DNA of 64,000 nt. Origin: an uncultured virus (IMG/VR IMGVR_UViG_3300017917_005385). Taxonomy: Duplodnaviria > Heunggongvirae > Uroviricota > Caudoviricetes. The stretch lies in the IMG/VR virus record IMGVR_UViG_3300017917_005385, one strand, 5' to 3'. The notes under the pieces are model-generated. The model did not search any database. It saw nothing but the letters and a program-made list of their open reading frames with translations, and was not told where the DNA came from. The translations under genes and the position numbers were made by a program. This document shows, piece by piece, positions 18,794 through 63,830 of the stretch (the first letter of the stretch is position 1; every line of letters starts with the position of its first letter).

Positions 18794-18811
18794 TAATTTA
18801 ATATATAGATT

Positions 18812-19779: not shown

Positions 19780-20241
19780 ATGAAACATTTAAAGAAATTT
19801 GAAAGTTTAGGACTTATTAAAGATTGGAATTTACTTTTATCTGATGAGGATTTCAAAAAGAATGCTGAGGAGTTTGACAGTATTGTTGAAGCTTATATTG
19901 AATATGCTCAAGAGGGTTATGAAATATCATTTGAAACTGCTTATGGTACAAGAGTAATCATTTCTTGGAATGACTATAATAGTAAAAATGAAAAGTATCA
20001 AGAATTTATACACGGTCTTGGAGCTAGAGGTTTCTTCTTTACATCAAAGATAAAATTACCTTATGATTATAGTAAACTTCAATCTCTTTTAGAAGATGTT
20101 CAAAGTTGTGTAGATAGATTAAGTGATATGGGTTGGATTTTAGTTGAATTTAAAGTTATTGGAATATCACCTGATAATAAAATAACACATAGTGAATATA
20201 ACCCGTCTCATATCAGGGTTGAACATGAATTTAAAAAGTAA
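19780..20241 (+). CDS. Putative capsid-internal protein (CTS-like N-terminus)
   Basis: True start ATG 19780 MKHLKKFES. Confidence 0.7.
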   Translation: MKHLKKFESLGLIKDWNLLLSDEDFKKNAEEFDSIVEAYIEYAQEGYEISFETAYGTRVIISWNDYNSKNEKYQEFIHGLGARGFFFTSKIKLPYDYSKLQSLLEDVQSCVDRLSDMGWILVEFKVIGISPDNKITHSEYNPSHIRVEHEFKK

Positions 20242-20572: not shown

Positions 20573-20605
20573 AAAAACTTTTCTATAACAAGAAAAGTTT
20601 TTTTT
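20573..20605 (+). terminator. Hairpin/terminator overlapping a putative -10 element
   Basis: AAAAACTTTTCT-ATAACA-AGAAAAGTTTTT followed by a T run. Confidence 0.6.
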
Positions 20606-20610
20606 GTTTT

Positions 20611-21081
20611 ATGAAACAGCCAAGTAAAGAAGATTTAATAAAAAAATGGGCACCTATTTTAGGGTCTATGGGTATGACTGGTTCACAATTAGATAATTTA
20701 TCACAGTTAGCCGAAAATCAGTCTAATCAAATATTAGAAGAAGAAAATAAAACTGAAGAGTTTCCAAGTTTATTTCCAATGGCTATGAAAATCTCAGCAA
20801 AAACTATTGGAATGGATTTAGTATCCGTTCAACCAATGACTGGACCAGGTGGAATGTCTGAAGAAGAAAGAAAAAGAATTGAAGCTGAAGTTAAACAAGA
20901 GAATCGTGATTCTAAAATTGACGCTTTAGTAGAAGGAACTGAATACAATGAAAAGAAAGTAGAAGACCATCCTGATTATAGACCTGGTAGTGGCGGTCAA
21001 TTATTTTATATGGATTATACATATGGTTCCACACATAAGAAAACAAGAAGAAGTAAAAAGAAGAAAAATGGCGGTATTTAA
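20611..21081 (+). CDS. Truncated gp23-like major capsid protein fragment with inserted RxxKI tag
   Basis: LIKKWAPIL, PMAMKISAKTIGMDLVSVQPMTGP..GQLFYMDY resemble the gp23 N-terminal half; the insertion contains RDSKIDALV; only 156 aa. Confidence 0.7.
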   Translation: MKQPSKEDLIKKWAPILGSMGMTGSQLDNLSQLAENQSNQILEEENKTEEFPSLFPMAMKISAKTIGMDLVSVQPMTGPGGMSEEERKRIEAEVKQENRDSKIDALVEGTEYNEKKVEDHPDYRPGSGGQLFYMDYTYGSTHKKTRRSKKKKNGGI

Positions 21082-21253
21082 GAGTCCGGGCGTTTTTGTC
21101 AAAGAAGAAGATATAGATATTGTTTATCCAAGGTTTTCTAAAAGATATACAAGAAGGATAAAAATAGGTAAAATATTTTATATAGATGTTCCTAATATTA
21201 TTATAACTTCTACTCCAAAAGGAGGACCCACAAACTTTCCACAAATCTGGTAA
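21068..21253 (+). CDS. Chimeric microprotein: tail-sheath N-terminus + tag + terminase coupling-motif-like peptide
   Basis: Start ATG 21068: MAVFKSPGVFVKEED..RRIKIGKIF..IIITSTPKGGPTNFPQIW. Confidence 0.6.
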   Translation: MAVFKSPGVFVKEEDIDIVYPRFSKRYTRRIKIGKIFYIDVPNIIITSTPKGGPTNFPQIW

Positions 21254-21282
21254 TGAAAACATGATAGAGTAATATATACTCT

Positions 21283-21618
21283 ATGATAAATGTTTATTTG
21301 ATATGCTCCGAATTTGAAGGTAGAAGATTGTACAAGATAGGTTATACGAGAAGAGATGTTTCTAAAAGAATTAAAGAGTTGAAGACTGGTAATGGTTCAG
21401 ATCTTTACATAATAGATTCATTTAAGTCAAAATGGGGTACTAAAATAGAGGCTCAGTTACATAGAACATTTAAAAGTAAAAAAGTCAACGGTGAGTGGTT
21501 TGATTTAACAGATGATGATGTTAAATCATTTATGGATAAATGTAAGTCTACTCACGATGTATTAGAAATTATAACAAACAATAATACCTACTATATGGAG
21601 ACTGGACGTTTATTTTAA
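21283..21618 (+). CDS. GIY-YIG family nuclease (T5orf172/MUG113-like)
   Basis: VYLI..YKIGYT..RIKELKTGN..E..LH..GEWF. Confidence 0.85.
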   Translation: MINVYLICSEFEGRRLYKIGYTRRDVSKRIKELKTGNGSDLYIIDSFKSKWGTKIEAQLHRTFKSKKVNGEWFDLTDDDVKSFMDKCKSTHDVLEIITNNNTYYMETGRLF

Positions 21619-24090: not shown

Positions 24091-24370
24091 TAATTTAATA
24101 ATTGAGTATTTGAATCTGAGATTAGAAAAGGTTAGGTCTGTTAAAAGGCAAAGTTGGCAAGTAGCTGCAGAGATTAGAGATAAAGAGCGCCTGAAATCAA
24201 AAGAAATATGGCAAATCTTAGCTCCAGGTGGTGAGTTTGTTGATTGGAATACTTGTGATAAAATCATAGATGATTATTGCTTACAAGTTTATAATTGTAG
24301 TACATATGATTATTCACTTTGTGTAAAATCTATAGAAAGAGTGAAAAAGTTAAGAGAGCTAGGTATATGA
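24080..24370 (+). CDS. UVR-domain-like microprotein with C-terminal tag
   Basis: KVRSVKRQSWQVAAEIRDKER resembles the UvrB/ClpC UVR motif; ends RVKKLRELGI. Confidence 0.65.
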   Translation: MDLDNLIIEYLNLRLEKVRSVKRQSWQVAAEIRDKERLKSKEIWQILAPGGEFVDWNTCDKIIDDYCLQVYNCSTYDYSLCVKSIERVKKLRELGI

Positions 24371-24777
24371 TTTTAATTATAGATGAAAAGATTATTGGAG
24401 AAGTAAACAAGGTTTTATTAACATCAACACTTGGTGATAATTATGTTACAGTTATTGTTAGTTGTGATGATAGTAAAAAATTTTTCCTTGATTGGTTAGA
24501 TTTTTATTCTAAACAACCTGCTAATGTATTTGATGAAAAAACACTCATTATATATGATGAAGTTTATGATAACTTAATAACAATATATGACTCTTATATT
24601 AAAGAGATTTTGAAATCTTATACAGATTGGTTTGGTAAAAAATTTGATAACATGTTTGAAATACATGTTGGTTACAAAGACTTTGAAGAAAAAAAACCCA
24701 GAGGTGAATCTGAGTTTTATAAAAATATCTATAAATCTTATTTAAGAGATAAAAAAATCAATCAAATCATAAATTAA
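24367..24777 (+). CDS. Hypothetical protein with C-terminal tag
   Basis: Start ATG 24367 (ATGA overlap); ends RDKKINQIIN. Confidence 0.65.
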   Translation: MILIIDEKIIGEVNKVLLTSTLGDNYVTVIVSCDDSKKFFLDWLDFYSKQPANVFDEKTLIIYDEVYDNLITIYDSYIKEILKSYTDWFGKKFDNMFEIHVGYKDFEEKKPRGESEFYKNIYKSYLRDKKINQIIN

Positions 24778-26279
24778 CATTCGTTACAAGAGTAATCGCC
24801 TCGACCATCGCAGCTTGAACATTCAACATCACCGTTTCCTCTACACTCACCACAAGTGACATTACCAGAACCTCCACATTCACCACATTCAATTTCATTT
24901 CCTTCTTCGTCTTCACCTAGATTACCAGATCCATCACATTCACCACATTGAACATTACCATCACCACCACACTCGTTGCAGGAATGTTCACCACTACCAT
25001 AACAGTCACTACACTCTTGTCTACCAGAACCTCCACAATATTCACAAGTACCAATGTGACCACCCCCAGTATCTTCTAGTGTAAGACCTCCATTATCTAT
25101 GTTTGATAATATACCATTTCCTTCTTGAAAGTACTTTAATGTATCTAAGTAAGGATAGTTACTGTAGTATTTCTTAGTAAGAGTAACTTTTAAATTCAAA
25201 TCAGCCGTAGATCCATCCGGTGCAATTGTTCTTCCACTATCAGTACTACTGTTGTGAAATTTTACATACCAACCATTTTCTTTAGCGAAGTCTCTATATA
25301 ATTGAACATCTGAATCGTTTATAGTATAGATTCTATCTAAGAATTTTTTACCATCATCTAACGTCCATAATAATGCTCTTCCTACAATTTTTTCATCGTC
25401 ATCTTGAGATTTGAAAATTACTAGACTAACTTGTTCTGGATTTTCTGTGTAAATTTCTAACCAAGATTCGCGAGCACTAGCCATACAAGAAGAACCTAAA
25501 GTTCCTCTTCTTTCATAGTATGTATTACTATTATACCAATAATGAATATCACTACCTTTAACAACATGAAAGTAAGAAAACTTATCATTCAATTTATCGA
25601 TAGTTGCTTTGAAAAGATTAACAAATGCTTCATAATCTTTATCTTGAACATCTGTAACACCAGCCGCTCTTAATATTGCTCTAGCTCCTCTGCCAACTTT
25701 AATATCTTGTCTGTTTTTCGACCAAACTTCTCTCATTAAAGCAGATACTGAGTCAATTAGTCTTAGTTTATCTTGATTGTAAACACCTTGTCCTATTTCA
25801 ACTCCTTCTTTATCTGTACCTTGACCACCTTTCCATTTAATCCAAAAGTATGTTTTACCTGATGATTCAGATGTTACTTTAGCAACCACTTCACCTATAT
25901 CTCTTGAGTTAGGTTTGTATGGTTCAGAACCTTCTTCATAAGTATAACCTAATTTACCAAAAATACTATTATTTGAGTCTTTATGTTTTAACCAACCACC
26001 ACCTGATCCTGTAAATCTATATTCTTCTTTAACTTGACCTAATATTTCTTGTGCCTTTCTATCGGGAATAAAATTTAAACTATCATTTTTATCCAATGTT
26101 ATATCAAAATAATTTGACTGAACTGGAACATCTTTGTTTTCAATTTCAAGTAATTTTTTAGCTATTGGATTTTCAATCTTAGCTAATGCTCTTCTTAATT
26201 TTTCTGAATAAACTACATTAGACTCTAACAAAAGATACTCTAGTGATTCGTTTATAAAATTGGAATATTTCTTAATCAT
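24774..26279 (-). CDS. SCM...RALLW...DRIY family protein with CTS-like N-terminus and DnaJ-type CxxCxGxG repeats
   Basis: MIKKYSNFINES; GTLGSSCM, GRALLW, FLDRIY, YPYLDTLK; about 7 CxxCxGxG repeats. Confidence 0.75.
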   Translation of the reverse strand: MIKKYSNFINESLEYLLLESNVVYSEKLRRALAKIENPIAKKLLEIENKDVPVQSNYFDITLDKNDSLNFIPDRKAQEILGQVKEEYRFTGSGGGWLKHKDSNNSIFGKLGYTYEEGSEPYKPNSRDIGEVVAKVTSESSGKTYFWIKWKGGQGTDKEGVEIGQGVYNQDKLRLIDSVSALMREVWSKNRQDIKVGRGARAILRAAGVTDVQDKDYEAFVNLFKATIDKLNDKFSYFHVVKGSDIHYWYNSNTYYERRGTLGSSCMASARESWLEIYTENPEQVSLVIFKSQDDDEKIVGRALLWTLDDGKKFLDRIYTINDSDVQLYRDFAKENGWYVKFHNSSTDSGRTIAPDGSTADLNLKVTLTKKYYSNYPYLDTLKYFQEGNGILSNIDNGGLTLEDTGGGHIGTCEYCGGSGRQECSDCYGSGEHSCNECGGDGNVQCGECDGSGNLGEDEEGNEIECGECGGSGNVTCGECRGNGDVECSSCDGRGDYSCNEC

Positions 26280-26542: not shown

Positions 26543-26831
26543 AAAACTGCTTAGTTTATTTCCTAATCAAACTAATAAAACATATGACTTAGGGAAATTA
26601 CAAAAATCTGGTTTTATAAAAAATTTAGATGATTTATCTGCTTGTCCAAATTGTAAAAGTAAAGATATAATTTGGGAGTTCTTTATACCAACAGATGGTT
26701 CTAAAACAACTCAAGATAGTTTATCTATTTGTAGAGATTGTGGTTACAATGATAAAAGAGGTGCATTTGAAGAAACAAATAAAGCCATTTTTAGACAACA
26801 AAAAATTAATCAAATATTAGATGGGATTTAA
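26535..26831 (+). CDS. Zinc-ribbon microprotein with C-terminal tag
   Basis: Start ATG 26535; CPNC..CRDC; ends RQQKINQILDGI. Confidence 0.65.
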   Translation: MIKKLLSLFPNQTNKTYDLGKLQKSGFIKNLDDLSACPNCKSKDIIWEFFIPTDGSKTTQDSLSICRDCGYNDKRGAFEETNKAIFRQQKINQILDGI

Positions 26832-27036
26832 TAAAAGATTTATCAGTCGTAAAAATTTAGAAATAATAGCTGAACAAGGTTTAGATAGTTTGATTAATTA
26901 TATAATTAAACCGGATGCTCTTATAATAGAGTCTGATGGTATTTCAGAAAAAGTTTGTGATATTGTAGGTAATACAAAAGATAAAAAAGAAATTAAGAAA
27001 AAATTAAAAGAAATAGGATTCTATGAATTTGAATAA
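26821..27036 (+). CDS. Hypothetical protein
   Basis: 71-aa ORF (MGFNKRFIS), overlapping both neighbours. Confidence 0.65.
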   Translation: MGFNKRFISRKNLEIIAEQGLDSLINYIIKPDALIIESDGISEKVCDIVGNTKDKKEIKKKLKEIGFYEFE

Positions 27037-27733
27037 AAACTACTATAGTATTCTTGGTGTTAAAAATACCGATGATGAAAAGACTATTAAAAAAGCTTAT
27101 TATAAATTATCATTCACTAACCACCCTGATAAAGGTGGTGATGCTATTCTTTTTAGTGAGATGACAGAAGCATACGATATTCTTTGTAGTGATAATAGAA
27201 AAGACTATGATTTAAAAAGTAAATTTGGAAATAACTATAACGAATATTTTGAATTATTTGATGTAAATATTGATTTTGATTTTGATAAAGAAAAGTCAAA
27301 TTTTGAAAAGTTTAAAAAATATGAAGTTAATGATATATATGTAACCATTGATGACAATTTTAATGGTTCATTAGAATATGAGAGATGGGTAAAATGTAAA
27401 ACTTGTGATGGTACTGGAAAAGACTTATCTGCAAAAATTGTTATTAAAGATAATGATGGTAATATTTTAAGAACTTTTGATGCTGATGATGGATGTGATT
27501 TTTGTGAGGGCTCTGGTAAAGACTATAAAGGAGAAACTTGTAATTTTTGTCAAGGAGCTGGCAAAGTAGGACTAACACCATGTAAAAAGTGCAACGGTGA
27601 AAAAAGAATATTAGGTAAACAAAAATTATCTGGAATTAAGCTAACAGGTGATGAGACTAAAATAGAATCAATGGGTAACTGTTCTAAAGATGTTGTAGGA
27701 ATGGTTGGATCTCTTATTCTAAAGAGAGGTTAA
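27023..27733 (+). CDS. dnaJ: DnaJ-like co-chaperone (J domain + zinc finger, truncated C-terminus)
   Basis: YYSILGV..HPDKGG; four CxxCxGxG-type repeats. Confidence 0.88.
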   Translation: MNLNKNYYSILGVKNTDDEKTIKKAYYKLSFTNHPDKGGDAILFSEMTEAYDILCSDNRKDYDLKSKFGNNYNEYFELFDVNIDFDFDKEKSNFEKFKKYEVNDIYVTIDDNFNGSLEYERWVKCKTCDGTGKDLSAKIVIKDNDGNILRTFDADDGCDFCEGSGKDYKGETCNFCQGAGKVGLTPCKKCNGEKRILGKQKLSGIKLTGDETKIESMGNCSKDVVGMVGSLILKRG

Positions 27734-37252: not shown

Positions 37253-37483
37253 ATGAAAAAAGAATATTACAACGAATTATTCGGTGGTAAAAAATACGGT
37301 GACTATATGGTTTATGGTTTAGATAAATCAGAATCTAAATATGAGGATTTAATAAATCTATTTGGTGATTACTATAACTCAGATACCTTTCAAGAAGAAT
37401 CAGAAGAACAAAAGGCTATTCGTGAAGCTAAAGAAAAAGCTGAAAAAAGAAATAATAAGATTGACCAAATTTTAGGAGAATAA
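37253..37483 (+). CDS. Microprotein with C-terminal tag
   Basis: Ends KRNNKIDQILGE. Confidence 0.7.
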   Translation: MKKEYYNELFGGKKYGDYMVYGLDKSESKYEDLINLFGDYYNSDTFQEESEEQKAIREAKEKAEKRNNKIDQILGE

Positions 37484-48825: not shown

Positions 48826-49065
48826 ATGTCAAGAACTCAAAAAGGTGATATATTGATTTGCTCAACAAATAAGCTTTATGGAATGAAGCAGCTATTAGTT
48901 GTTGGTGAACAATATAAAGTTGTTGATATATATGAAATGACTGAAAAGAAAATAGTTGATGTGATTCGTGTAAATACAAACGAAAGGCTAGGTCTATTTG
49001 ATGATAGACATTTTATACCAATAGATGTTTGGCGAGAATTTCAACTAAGAAAGATATTAGAATAA
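48826..49065 (+). CDS. SH3-like microprotein with C-terminal tag
   Basis: Start ATG 48826, 4 nt after TATATTTG; KGDILIC..L.VG.QYKV; ends REFQLRKILE. Confidence 0.65.
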   Translation: MSRTQKGDILICSTNKLYGMKQLLVVGEQYKVVDIYEMTEKKIVDVIRVNTNERLGLFDDRHFIPIDVWREFQLRKILE

Positions 49066-61014: not shown

Positions 61015-61254
61015 ATGATGAAAATTTATAAGATTACATTTAACGATGGTGGTTGGCATAGTGGTTCACTACCCAGTATAACAATAGTTGCTAAGTCTAG
61101 TGATGATGCAAAAGAAAAAGCATTATCTGAAAATCCAAGATATAAGCAAGGATATGATGTTTGGGTTTCTGAGTTCAAGATTGAGGGTTATGTAATTGAG
61201 GTGTATGACGAGAAGACATACAATCGTGATAAAAATATTGAAAAAATTCTTTAA
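61015..61254 (+). CDS. Microprotein with C-terminal tag
   Basis: Ends NRDKNIEKIL. Confidence 0.7.
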   Translation: MMKIYKITFNDGGWHSGSLPSITIVAKSSDDAKEKALSENPRYKQGYDVWVSEFKIEGYVIEVYDEKTYNRDKNIEKIL

Positions 61255-63108: not shown

Positions 63109-63450
63109 ATGTCACTAATACATCATTTAGGAAAAGCGGAGACCTCTCAAGAAGGCGTGAATGATTTAGTAAAAGATTTAGAAACTTGTGTACAAACACT
63201 TGAGAATATCAATAGTATTCTAAAAGGTTCAAAATCAAGTGGAAGATCATATGTAGAAACTGAAGTCAATAAAAAAATTGAAGATGGTATATTAGATTCA
63301 ATTCATAATGCTAATAATCACCAATTAAGTGTTATATTAAATGGTGGCTATAGATTCAGATTTTATACTGAATTGAATAATAAAGAAACATTAAGAAACG
63401 AAATACAAAAAAGATTAAGAGATAACAAATTAAAAGAATTAGGACTATGA
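63109..63450 (+). CDS. Hypothetical protein with C-terminal tag
   Basis: Ends LRDNKLKELGL. Confidence 0.7.
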   Translation: MSLIHHLGKAETSQEGVNDLVKDLETCVQTLENINSILKGSKSSGRSYVETEVNKKIEDGILDSIHNANNHQLSVILNGGYRFRFYTELNNKETLRNEIQKRLRDNKLKELGL

Positions 63451-63830
63451 TATTTTTAGGAATTTTAATAGGATTTATTTTAGGTCTTCCAATTGGATTT
63501 ATTAAGTGGAAGAAAAAACAAGAACCTGTTGTTGAGAAATATACAAGACGAGGTTTATTAGGTAAAGAATTTAGCGTAACTGATGGTATAACCGGTAGAA
63601 AAAGCACAGTTGAGTGTAACTTTGAAATTGGTGAATTAGAATCAACAGATACTCTTTCAAAAATTGAAGTAATATTTGTTAAATCAAATCAATCTGAATA
63701 TAACACAGACTCTAATAAAAAGAGATTGATTGATATGATTGACAATACTTGGGTTAACTCCAAGGATATTATGTGGATTACAACTACGGCTGATGTTAGA
63801 AACAAAAAAATAGACCAAGTTTTAAATTAA
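63447..63830 (+). CDS. Membrane-anchored protein with C-terminal tag
   Basis: N-terminal TM; ends VRNKKIDQVLN. Confidence 0.7.
   Translation: MIFLGILIGFILGLPIGFIKWKKKQEPVVEKYTRRGLLGKEFSVTDGITGRKSTVECNFEIGELESTDTLSKIEVIFVKSNQSEYNTDSNKKRLIDMIDNTWVNSKDIMWITTTADVRNKKIDQVLN

Follow-up and report, generated by a model that had tools for sequence, protein, structure and literature searches.

What kind of protein begins like the tail sheath of a phage, continues with a basic helix and ends on a segment that reads like a large terminase? This question is raised by a small open reading frame (ORF), here called ORF2, at positions 21068..21253 on the + strand of a 64,000-nucleotide (nt) stretch of DNA from an uncultured virus of the Caudoviricetes (IMG/VR record IMGVR_UViG_3300017917_005385), which is referred to as the window. 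An earlier note on this DNA had described ORF2 as a chimera of a tail-sheath N-terminus and a terminase motif around a tag, coupled to a capsid mimic. The comparisons reported here make it highly probable that ORF2 is a translated, conserved mini-protein of an uncultured huge-phage clade and that it derives from the N-terminal ~50 residues of the sheath of the phage itself. With regard to its function, the explanation which we favour overall, though tentatively, is that of a sheath-derived, tagged mini-protein that forms a pair of baits or mimics together with the overlapping upstream ORF1.

ORF2 runs from ATG to TAA over 61 amino acids (aa), exactly as quoted in the earlier note, and belongs to a conserved family of ~58-61 aa. 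A word-indexed search identified 116 homologs (46-83 aa, 68-100% identity) on contigs of up to 630 kb, and the family profile found 49 matches at E ≤ 1e-3 among 1.8 billion representatives, 48 of them proteins of 32-104 aa and one a repetitive protein of 3294 aa. In the family alignment (n = 162, consisting of the window ORF2 and 161 database proteins), the arm motif xPG[VI] is present in 151 members, the central skeleton R..K[IL]..[ILV][FLY] in 154, the string IITSTP in 115, and a C-terminal [IM]W then stop in 103. Ratios of nonsynonymous to synonymous substitution rates (dN/dS), which like the codon comparisons below rest on a small set of five genomes (the window and close loci), are 0.28-0.77 for ORF2 in 10 of 10 pairs, and by this measure ORF2 is under purifying selection. 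Being conserved and showing dN/dS below 1 throughout, it is not a product of gene decay, an origin already considered hard to reconcile with it in the earlier note. In the AlphaFold2 (AF2) model of ORF2 (mean predicted local distance difference test score, pLDDT, 59), the helix of residues 25-36 is the best-scored stretch and the strands at residues 3-6 and 9-14 are of low confidence; the model of ORF1 has a mean pLDDT of 61, its best-scored stretch being an inserted helix, and the two models suggest that neither protein is a globular fold. No usable match was obtained in the ESM Atlas, and no description of such a gene was found in print, the texts consulted being mostly listings and abstracts.

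As references, the sheath, capsid protein, and terminase of relatives stood in for those of the window. The relative used most is LR756502.1, a 642-kb uncultured phage and the window's only DNA match among GenBank phages (74.5% over a gp46-like gene), which a passage of PMC9723777 counts among the largest megaphages (>630 kb), with a freshwater lake as its source. Seven loci were compared, namely the window, four IMG/VR loci (L010-L013), LR756502.1, and the 635-kb phage LR745206.1. For profile comparisons, residues 1-20, 22-40, and 41-61 of the family were each run against all 957 ORFs (199,302 residues) of LR756502.1, with 40 shuffled proteomes as control; E-values are approximate for profiles of such shortness, and the shuffles agree with them.

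The arm profile (residues 1-20, 21068..21127 on the + strand, ..KSPGVFVKE.DI.IV, with AF2 strands) ranks the real sheath of LR756502.1 first of the 957 ORFs, at sheath residues 6-23 (13.1 bits, E 0.003; runner-up 6.0 bits). The best scores in shuffled proteomes are 11.5 bits for the arm, 12.1 for the strand, and 8.9 for the middle profile, and none of the 40 reaches 13.1, which bears out the likeness to the sheath motif SPGVYV.E.D noticed earlier. The arm resembles the clade's own sheaths, since its profile scores 13.0-13.1 bits on three of them as opposed to -2.0 bits on two cyanophage-type sheaths, and the idea that ORF2 displays a generic consensus rather than a copy of the phage's own protein was rejected for the arm on this ground. 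Sheaths of the clade are ~1300 aa long, have 778 database relatives at E ≤ 1e-3 (84-99% identity over the first 100 residues among the 120 listed), and start with the arm, a short linker, and a strand with turn (..NMVIGVSKKGPVNTP..), followed by ..DL.SIFG. In a comparison by hhalign of the whole ORF2 family with 91 distinct sheath N-termini (89%, E 2.4e-6, 47 columns), residues 1-58 of ORF2 are in register with residues 1-47 of the sheath, and a single sheath gap of 12 residues lies opposite the basic helix. Sixteen long-form relatives (up to 104 aa) align even with sheath residues 1-63 (95.7%, E 8.4e-9, 38% identity), including GP.N.P...F...FG, and in one genome ORF2 and the sheath of the same phage are found by BLASTP at E 7e-4 (residues 3-58 versus 4-47). 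These alignments with the sheath N-terminus are colinear, and the ORF2 family is therefore a sheath N-terminal paralog; as read from them, the subfamily of the window is a sheath paralog that ends directly after the turn.

What is copied is a small part of the parent. ORF2 carries the N-terminal arm motif (x-PG-V/I-hydrophobic-x-E-x-D-x-S) at its very start and lacks a core or a C-terminal handshake-accepting domain (PF04984 and relatives), which real sheaths of relatives carry, and there is no Pfam match to ORF2 even at E 10. Pairwise BLASTP with the window ORF2 reaches only E 0.017, against sheath and against terminase alike, and short queries made of the arm had no matches in the PDB. Of three single-protein scans for loci of long-form relatives, two came back empty, and the third met only with INNYDDFE, by chance, further inside sheaths of the cyanophage type. 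That ORF2 recently underwent gene conversion with the genes for the real sheath or terminase was considered and rejected, as nucleotide similarity does not go beyond ~70% over 40 nt. Single parts of ORF2 are gained and lost within the family: the arm is absent from the homolog of LR745206.1 and the terminase spelling from that of LR756502.1. In the former (L056:1971-2225), the PGV arm is lost, and the basic helix and a sheath-like tail (..FVIPIGDMKDKP..IKKFK) are kept.

Why, then, does ORF2 end like a terminase? Residues 41-61 (21188..21250, + strand), a strand with turn reading IIITSTPKGGPTNFPQIW, occupy the position of the sheath's first core strand and spell terminase motif III. Their profile places the large terminase of LR756502.1 (residues 236-248, ..KIIITSTPNGMN..) first among the 957 ORFs (13.1 bits, E 0.005; runner-up 7.0 bits), a score attained in none of the 40 shuffles. 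The terminase likeness claimed in the earlier note stands as a string match only: hhalign gives no more than 6.9% for the ORF2 family and 2.1% for the long forms against terminase, the likeness spans 13-18 residues, and, of the features of a large terminase with its Pfam domains Terminase_6N and 6C, ORF2 possesses the motif III strand (hhhh-T-S/T-T-P-x-G) without an ATPase domain with Walker A/B motifs, a nuclease domain, or a Pfam match. That the resemblance might be pure chance was a view derived from the hhalign results, and it was dropped as a firm claim after the proteome-wide rank test and the shuffles.

One has to ask whether ORF2 might be just a tagged sheath fragment whose terminase likeness, arising by chance or by structural convergence of a β-strand and turn, is functionally meaningless. 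Besides the low hhalign values, it speaks for such a fragment that the best PDB match of the whole-family profile, T4 gp17 residues 281-298, is not significant (E 0.28), that no terminase appears at E ≤ 1e-3 among the 1.8 billion representatives, that the ORF2 homolog of LR756502.1 has IVGMSYG in place of the terminase-like spelling, and that the turn after the strand is of the sheath type GP.N.P in 57 of 162 members, the window ORF2 included, and of the terminase type G.N.F in only four. However, a chance or convergent origin has to contend with a terminase coming first among 199,302 positions by 13.1 versus 7.0 bits and in no shuffle, with a strand profile that scores -1.6 bits on the sheath's own strand, and with the retention of IITSTP in 115 of 162 members; we regard it as possible, though on balance unlikely.

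Alternatively, a piece of terminase motif III could have been attached to a sheath gene at its 5' end, perhaps as a trace of homing by the adjoining MUG113/T5orf172 (GIY-YIG-type) gene (21283..21618, + strand, 111 aa; Pfam E 5e-21), and have been kept later. The first rank of the terminase for residues 41-61 and T4 gp17 as top PDB match would agree with such a recombination, and so would relatives nearer to the T4 spelling (P0124, ..STPNGLNNF..; P0146, ..IIITSTPVGQNTFY..), long forms like P0153 which hold both a terminase-like strand and a separate sheath-like VPVGPVNKP..FG, and the weak PHROG matches of the nuclease gene that include 'homing endonuclease' (E 6e-5). Yet no trace at the DNA level is left, ORF2 homologs and the terminase gene of a given genome using different codons for IITSTP.G; the likeness is confined to the few residues mentioned, and the strand takes precisely the place of the sheath's own strand, aligning in register with residues 33-47 of the sheath. 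Across the family, it forms a graded series leading from the sheath to the terminase spelling (VIGVSKKG, VLTSKTSKKG, IITSLSKSG, IITSTEKG, IITSTPKG) in an order that was set by us. The nuclease gene follows ORF2 directly in 7 of 7 loci, without the patchy presence or shifting position expected of a free-standing homing-endonuclease cassette, and is therefore considered fixed and not visibly mobile; its synonymous divergence is like that of the flanks and unlike that of ORF1 and ORF2, and a role in recombination has been proposed for T5orf172 proteins by Iyer et al., as stated in an excerpt of PMC7824862. A recombinant origin thus appears very improbable to us. Of the chimera described earlier, the three-part make-up of sheath arm, tag-like helix, and terminase-like strand is statistically reproducible, whereas a fusion of two gene pieces is not supported, because the whole of ORF2 is colinear with the sheath, the GP.N.P turn is kept, and the heptad codons are unlike those of the terminase. 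The simplest reading is that the sheath strand evolved in place toward the terminase spelling; long forms with two strands, such as P0153, may go back to an old insertion or duplication.

The segment between arm and strand is the part without counterpart in the sheath. Residues 22-40 (21131..21187, + strand; SKRYTRRIKIGKIF) contain the 12-residue insert evident from hhalign and from the BLASTP gap, are predicted by AF2 to be helical at residues 25-36, and are the most conserved part of the family (R29 in 98%; K25, K32, I33, and I36 in 96%). The sequence RRIKIGKIF, which had been noted between the two motifs, fits the skeleton R-x-x-K-[IL]-x-x-[ILV]-[LIF] of an address tag that small proteins of the clade carry at their C-termini, and scores only 6.0 bits on the tag matrix. 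With the pattern R-x-x-[KRQN]-[IL]-x-x-[ILV]-[LIFGV], drawn from terminal tags and ORF2 and not from ORF1, 10 sites are found in 65 non-overlapping ORFs of the window, as compared to 1.7 expected from shuffles. Eight of these 10 sites lie at most three residues from a C-terminus (R-x-x-K-[IL]-x-x-[ILV]-[LIG], at 24341-24370, 24748-24777, 26796-26831, 37451-37483, 49036-49065, 61225-61254, 63421-63450, and 63801-63830) and are encoded by differing codons; the sole two internal sites are those of ORF1 and ORF2, where the tag ends 49 and 24 residues, respectively, from the end of the protein. In LR756502.1, 135 of 957 ORFs have a C-terminal tag (0.7 expected) and 47 an internal one (~18 expected), so internal copies are not unique to ORF1 and ORF2. 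On a matrix of those 135 tags, the ORF2 site ranks 18 with its 6.0 bits, the maximum in shuffles being 8.5 +/- 3.1, while the ORF1 site obtains 18.6 bits, rank 6 of 19,699 positions, and is the best internal site in the window. When the middle profile (residues 22-40) is run against the LR756502.1 proteome, five of the six top matches are C-terminal ends of small ORFs. In ORF2, the helical skeleton of the tag is present, in 154 of 162 members and in the AF2 model, and its C-terminal position is not.

ORF1 (20611..21081, + strand, 156 aa) is a paralog of residues ~1-130 of the major capsid protein. It aligns to residues 8-~130 of the real, 571-aa capsid protein of LR756502.1 (BLASTP E 8e-15), whose own ORF1 resembles that capsid protein equally (E 1e-14), matches Pfam Gp23 (E 1e-4) and PHROG 138, 'major head protein' (E 3e-6), and has 679 homologs of near length. 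Its capsid segment scores 23.0 bits on Pfam Gp23, compared to 12.6 bits for the real capsid protein of LR756502.1, and two other ORF1 homologs do not match; the suggestion that the motifs represent a generic consensus rather than copies of the phage's own proteins holds for this Gp23 score alone, a single measurement. With respect to the real capsid protein, ORF1 has a helical insert of ~45 aa (20851..20994, + strand; AF2 helix 84-108), deduced from the capsid alignments, which contains the strong internal tag copy NRDSKIDALVEG (20902-20937, + strand) and a nearly invariant core, NRD.KID..[IV]EG, with N98, R99, D100, and I103 invariant in 45 sequences. The segment of the T4 capsid protein that activates the Lit protease together with EF-Tu presumably corresponds to the VQPM region retained by ORF1, and we take this as a lead rather than as a result.

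The stop of ORF1 and the start of ORF2 overlap by 14 nt (21068..21081, + strand), which suggests translational coupling. Overlaps of 14-26 nt exist in L010-L013 and of 4 nt (ATGA) in LR756502.1 and LR745206.1, and the pairing is kept in 7 of 7 loci, so that the coupling to a capsid mimic that had been proposed is sustained, ORF1 being a capsid paralog. Fusion of ORF1 and ORF2 by frameshifting was set aside, because it would need a +1 shift and because ATGA and the short overlaps fit simple coupling.

How this cassette (20611-21253) evolves differs from how its surroundings do. At identical-residue pairs, the same codon is used with a frequency of 0.81 in ORF1 and 0.80 in ORF2, as compared to 0.56-0.70 in six flanking genes, the expectation from codon usage being equal (0.53-0.58), and synonymous sites of the cassette are about twice as conserved as those of the flanking genes. 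An antisense ORF at 20912-21262 was rejected as cause of this conservation because the excess is just as high in the portion of ORF1 that lies outside of it. At the protein level, the dN/dS of ORF2 (0.28-0.77) contrasts with 0.05-0.29 for the MUG113 gene and the 103-aa gene upstream. Synonymous divergence (dS) of ORF2 is uneven between pairs (0.17-0.91): between the window and L010 it is 0.17, whereas the 103-aa gene and the MUG113 gene have values above 1. No pair is closer in the flanks than the window and L011 (86% aa identity), and none is more distant in the cassette (63%); relationships among the five phages inferred from the cassette disagree with those of its flanks. This pattern fits lateral exchange of the cassette together with fast protein change, as is typical of conflict genes, and points less to housekeeping assembly than to a role in conflict, as a decoy or mimic against defence.

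The same data could be read as a constraint on the nucleic acid, with DNA or RNA of the cassette being kept as expression leader, structured RNA, or recombination homology, and with the peptide motifs as by-products. Codon identity is indeed raised, evenly along ORF1, and the cassette is bracketed by two conserved elements. One is a terminator-like hairpin with T-run (20574..20606, + strand) that ends 5 nt before the ATG of ORF1 and folds in each of the six loci tested (-7.7 to -14.3 kcal/mol), with a stem of different sequence in LR756502.1; the other is the palindrome AGAGTAATATATACTCT (21266..21282, no strand assigned) between the ORF2 stop and the MUG113 ATG, kept in four of five close loci. 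Nevertheless, LR756502.1 preserves the architecture, including start, frame, and length, at an identity of 36%, amino-acid motifs whose codons vary make up the best-conserved columns, no Rfam match exists in the window, and the uneven dS of ORF2 fits lateral exchange better than a uniform constraint. We therefore give this possibility little credence.

If ORF1 and ORF2 are products of a conflict, how might they act? ORF2 keeps the sheath arm, after which a 12-residue basic helix of the clade's address-tag type is inserted, and then continues with the first core strand and turn of the sheath, the strand now spelling terminase motif III (IIITSTP.G). It is presumably made together with ORF1, the cut-down capsid paralog (first ~130 residues) bearing a strong internal copy of the tag. 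The pair would expose linear segments that become inaccessible in the real capsid, sheath, and terminase once these fold or assemble, and would bind putative readers of such segments, be these sensors or proteases of the host, chaperones, or intermediates of assembly. The helix would tie the complex to a putative reader of the clade's tag. That ORF1 and ORF2 serve as motif-display baits or mimics in a conflict, and not as folded copies of their parents, is an idea we put forward with reserve, at rather less than even confidence. A more specific version, which we consider improbable as it stands, is a 'hallmark mimic' cassette: two tagged proteins would display capsid, sheath, and terminase segments exposed only in new, unassembled molecules and thereby pre-empt host sensors or poison the assembly of rival phages, the helix would hand the captured partner to the tag reader, and the cassette would be laterally traded and fast-evolving, with a strand selected toward the terminase spelling.

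A less hostile role must be weighed at this point. As modulators of assembly, ORF2 could dock with its arm on the free handshake platform of the sheath and ORF1 on free capsid protein, capping or escorting them until baseplate, tube, or portal templates are ready, or marking polymer ends, and the terminase spelling would be incidental. It agrees with such a role that the arm is closest to sheaths of the clade itself, that the N-terminal arm forms the inter-subunit 'handshake' strand in solved sheaths (according to a portion of PMC10457771), that both parents, capsid and sheath, self-polymerise, and that ORF1 and ORF2 are always paired and overlapping. However, the cassette is situated outside the structural module, among small accessory and recombination genes, its dN/dS exceeds that of its neighbours and its history is discordant with theirs, the arm is absent in LR745206.1, the terminase match at E 0.005 is left unexplained, and the very large numbers of capsid and sheath subunits argue against one-to-one escort. 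Assembly modulation seems rather doubtful to us, and a bait is preferred to an escort because of the location outside the structural module, the pattern of evolution, the modular gain and loss of parts, and a terminase spelling that is otherwise unexplained.

Several points weigh against a bait or mimic. In the part of a study on Avs sensors that was available (10.64898/2026.01.04.697583), these recognise 'the conserved core folds' and envelop whole folds, not short strands, and the tail sheath figures only as a conjectured future target of Avs; ORF2, with its 61 aa, has neither the ATPase nor the nuclease fold. A bait that truly mimics the trigger might activate the sensor instead of blocking it. 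With regard to the sequence comparisons, the boundaries of the sub-profiles derive from the hypothesis under test, which is that of the earlier note, and the tag matrix fails to separate the ORF2 helix from chance. Neither sheath nor terminase is among the family profile's matches at E ≤ 1e-3 in the 1.8 billion representatives, and single family members match no Pfam or PHROG model of sheath or terminase, even at E 10. Finally, a constraint at the nucleotide level could be the reason why synonymous divergence of the cassette is low.

The genomic setting is that of an AT-rich (~29% GC) phage with a T4-like gene set, in which Pfam and PHROG identify PhoH, an SbcC-like gp46 homolog, primase, NAD ligase, Sir2, and tail-fibre-like proteins besides many unassigned ORFs; Rfam and tRNA scans of the window found nothing. 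All seven loci examined have the cassette of ORF1, ORF2, and the MUG113 gene. The order 103-aa gene, ORF1, ORF2, MUG113/T5orf172 gene, 90-aa gene, ~118-aa gene recurs in 4 of 4 IMG/VR loci returned and, with extra ORFs between some genes, in LR756502.1, and the stretch fetched from LR745206.1 matches up to the 90-aa gene and ends before the position of the gp46-like gene. The latter is found downstream, directly or past extra ORFs, in six of seven loci and is split in L011, where (L011:7331-11109) it breaks off just behind the P-loop (..GAGKS) and is taken up again after ..SHN|SSLLDSF, with other ORFs filling the ~3.5 kb in the gap; the interruption looks like an intein or other inserted element.

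Some further features of the DNA and of neighbouring genes are recorded here. The palindrome AGAGTAATATATACTCT resembles a TATATATAC motif that in relatives lies in front of the genes for the real sheath and capsid protein. In relatives (L003, L008, L019, L020), a motif of the type TATATATA(C/G) precedes the genes for the real sheath, capsid protein, and terminase by ~30 nt, and in the window it occurs at 21266-21282 and 18796-18808, 2-5 nt from the start codons of the MUG113 gene and of a gene for a 321-aa protein. This suggests a possible promoter and leaderless starts. On the - strand, 24774-26279 encodes a protein of 501 aa in which zinc-finger repeats of the form CxxCxGxG follow one another over a long stretch, and the gene for another protein, with a DnaJ domain, lies nearby (27023-27733, + strand); either might serve tagged proteins as a partner of the chaperone type. 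Many unrelated ORFs begin alike, with the N-terminal motif MK.LKKF/Y.. or MIK+Y..F..E, such as those at 19780, 20252, 50364, 50822, and 18812 on the + strand and 39731, 42876, and 26279 on the - strand.

If ORF1 and ORF2 act as mimics, they would constitute the first counter-measure that a phage makes out of short stretches of its own hallmark proteins, and their parts would point directly to the features of newly made capsid, sheath, and terminase that hosts or competing phages read. If they act as assembly escorts, they would reveal how heads and tails of very large size are kept from polymerising too early. In both cases, they provide two well-defined, abundant handles (679 and more than 160 database relatives) on an address tag found in 12-14% of the ORFs that were counted, both in the window and in LR756502.1.

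Among known systems, the handshake arm of the sheath (T4 gp18 type; the ~1300-aa sheaths of the clade) is shared by ORF2 in that its residues 1-20 match sheath residues 6-23 and that the protein is colinear with residues 1-47, in long forms up to residue 63. In contrast to a sheath, ORF2 has 61 instead of ~1300 aa, contains the 12-residue helix insert, and is devoid of the handshake-accepting C-terminal domain and of a Pfam sheath domain. Motif III of the large terminase (T4 gp17; Terminase_6N) is called the 'coupling motif' in the T4 literature. With it, ORF2 has in common IIITSTPKG..NF.QIW, to be compared with KIIITTTPNGLNHFYDIW of T4 and with KIIITSTPNGMNLF of the clade (8 of 9 residues identical); unlike a terminase, it is alike over 13-18 residues only, has no Walker motifs, ATPase fold, or nuclease domain, and uses unrelated codons. 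The C-terminal address tag of small megaphage proteins, of which no account was found in print, shares its helical skeleton R-x-x-K-[IL]-x-x-[ILV]-[LIF] with ORF1 and ORF2, the copy in ORF1 being a strong one, and differs in that the copies in ORF1 and ORF2 are internal and that the version in ORF2 is more basic and reaches only 6.0 bits on the matrix. Decoys against capsid or terminase sensors exist, and our literature search, covering mostly listings and abstracts, returned no relevant description of phage decoys for such sensors. In comparison with phage decoys and mimics of immune sensors, the segments of ORF1 and ORF2 are linear rather than folded and their likeness is known here from sequence alone, whereas small size, fast evolution, lateral exchange, and the imitation of hallmark proteins read by sensors are features which both have in common.

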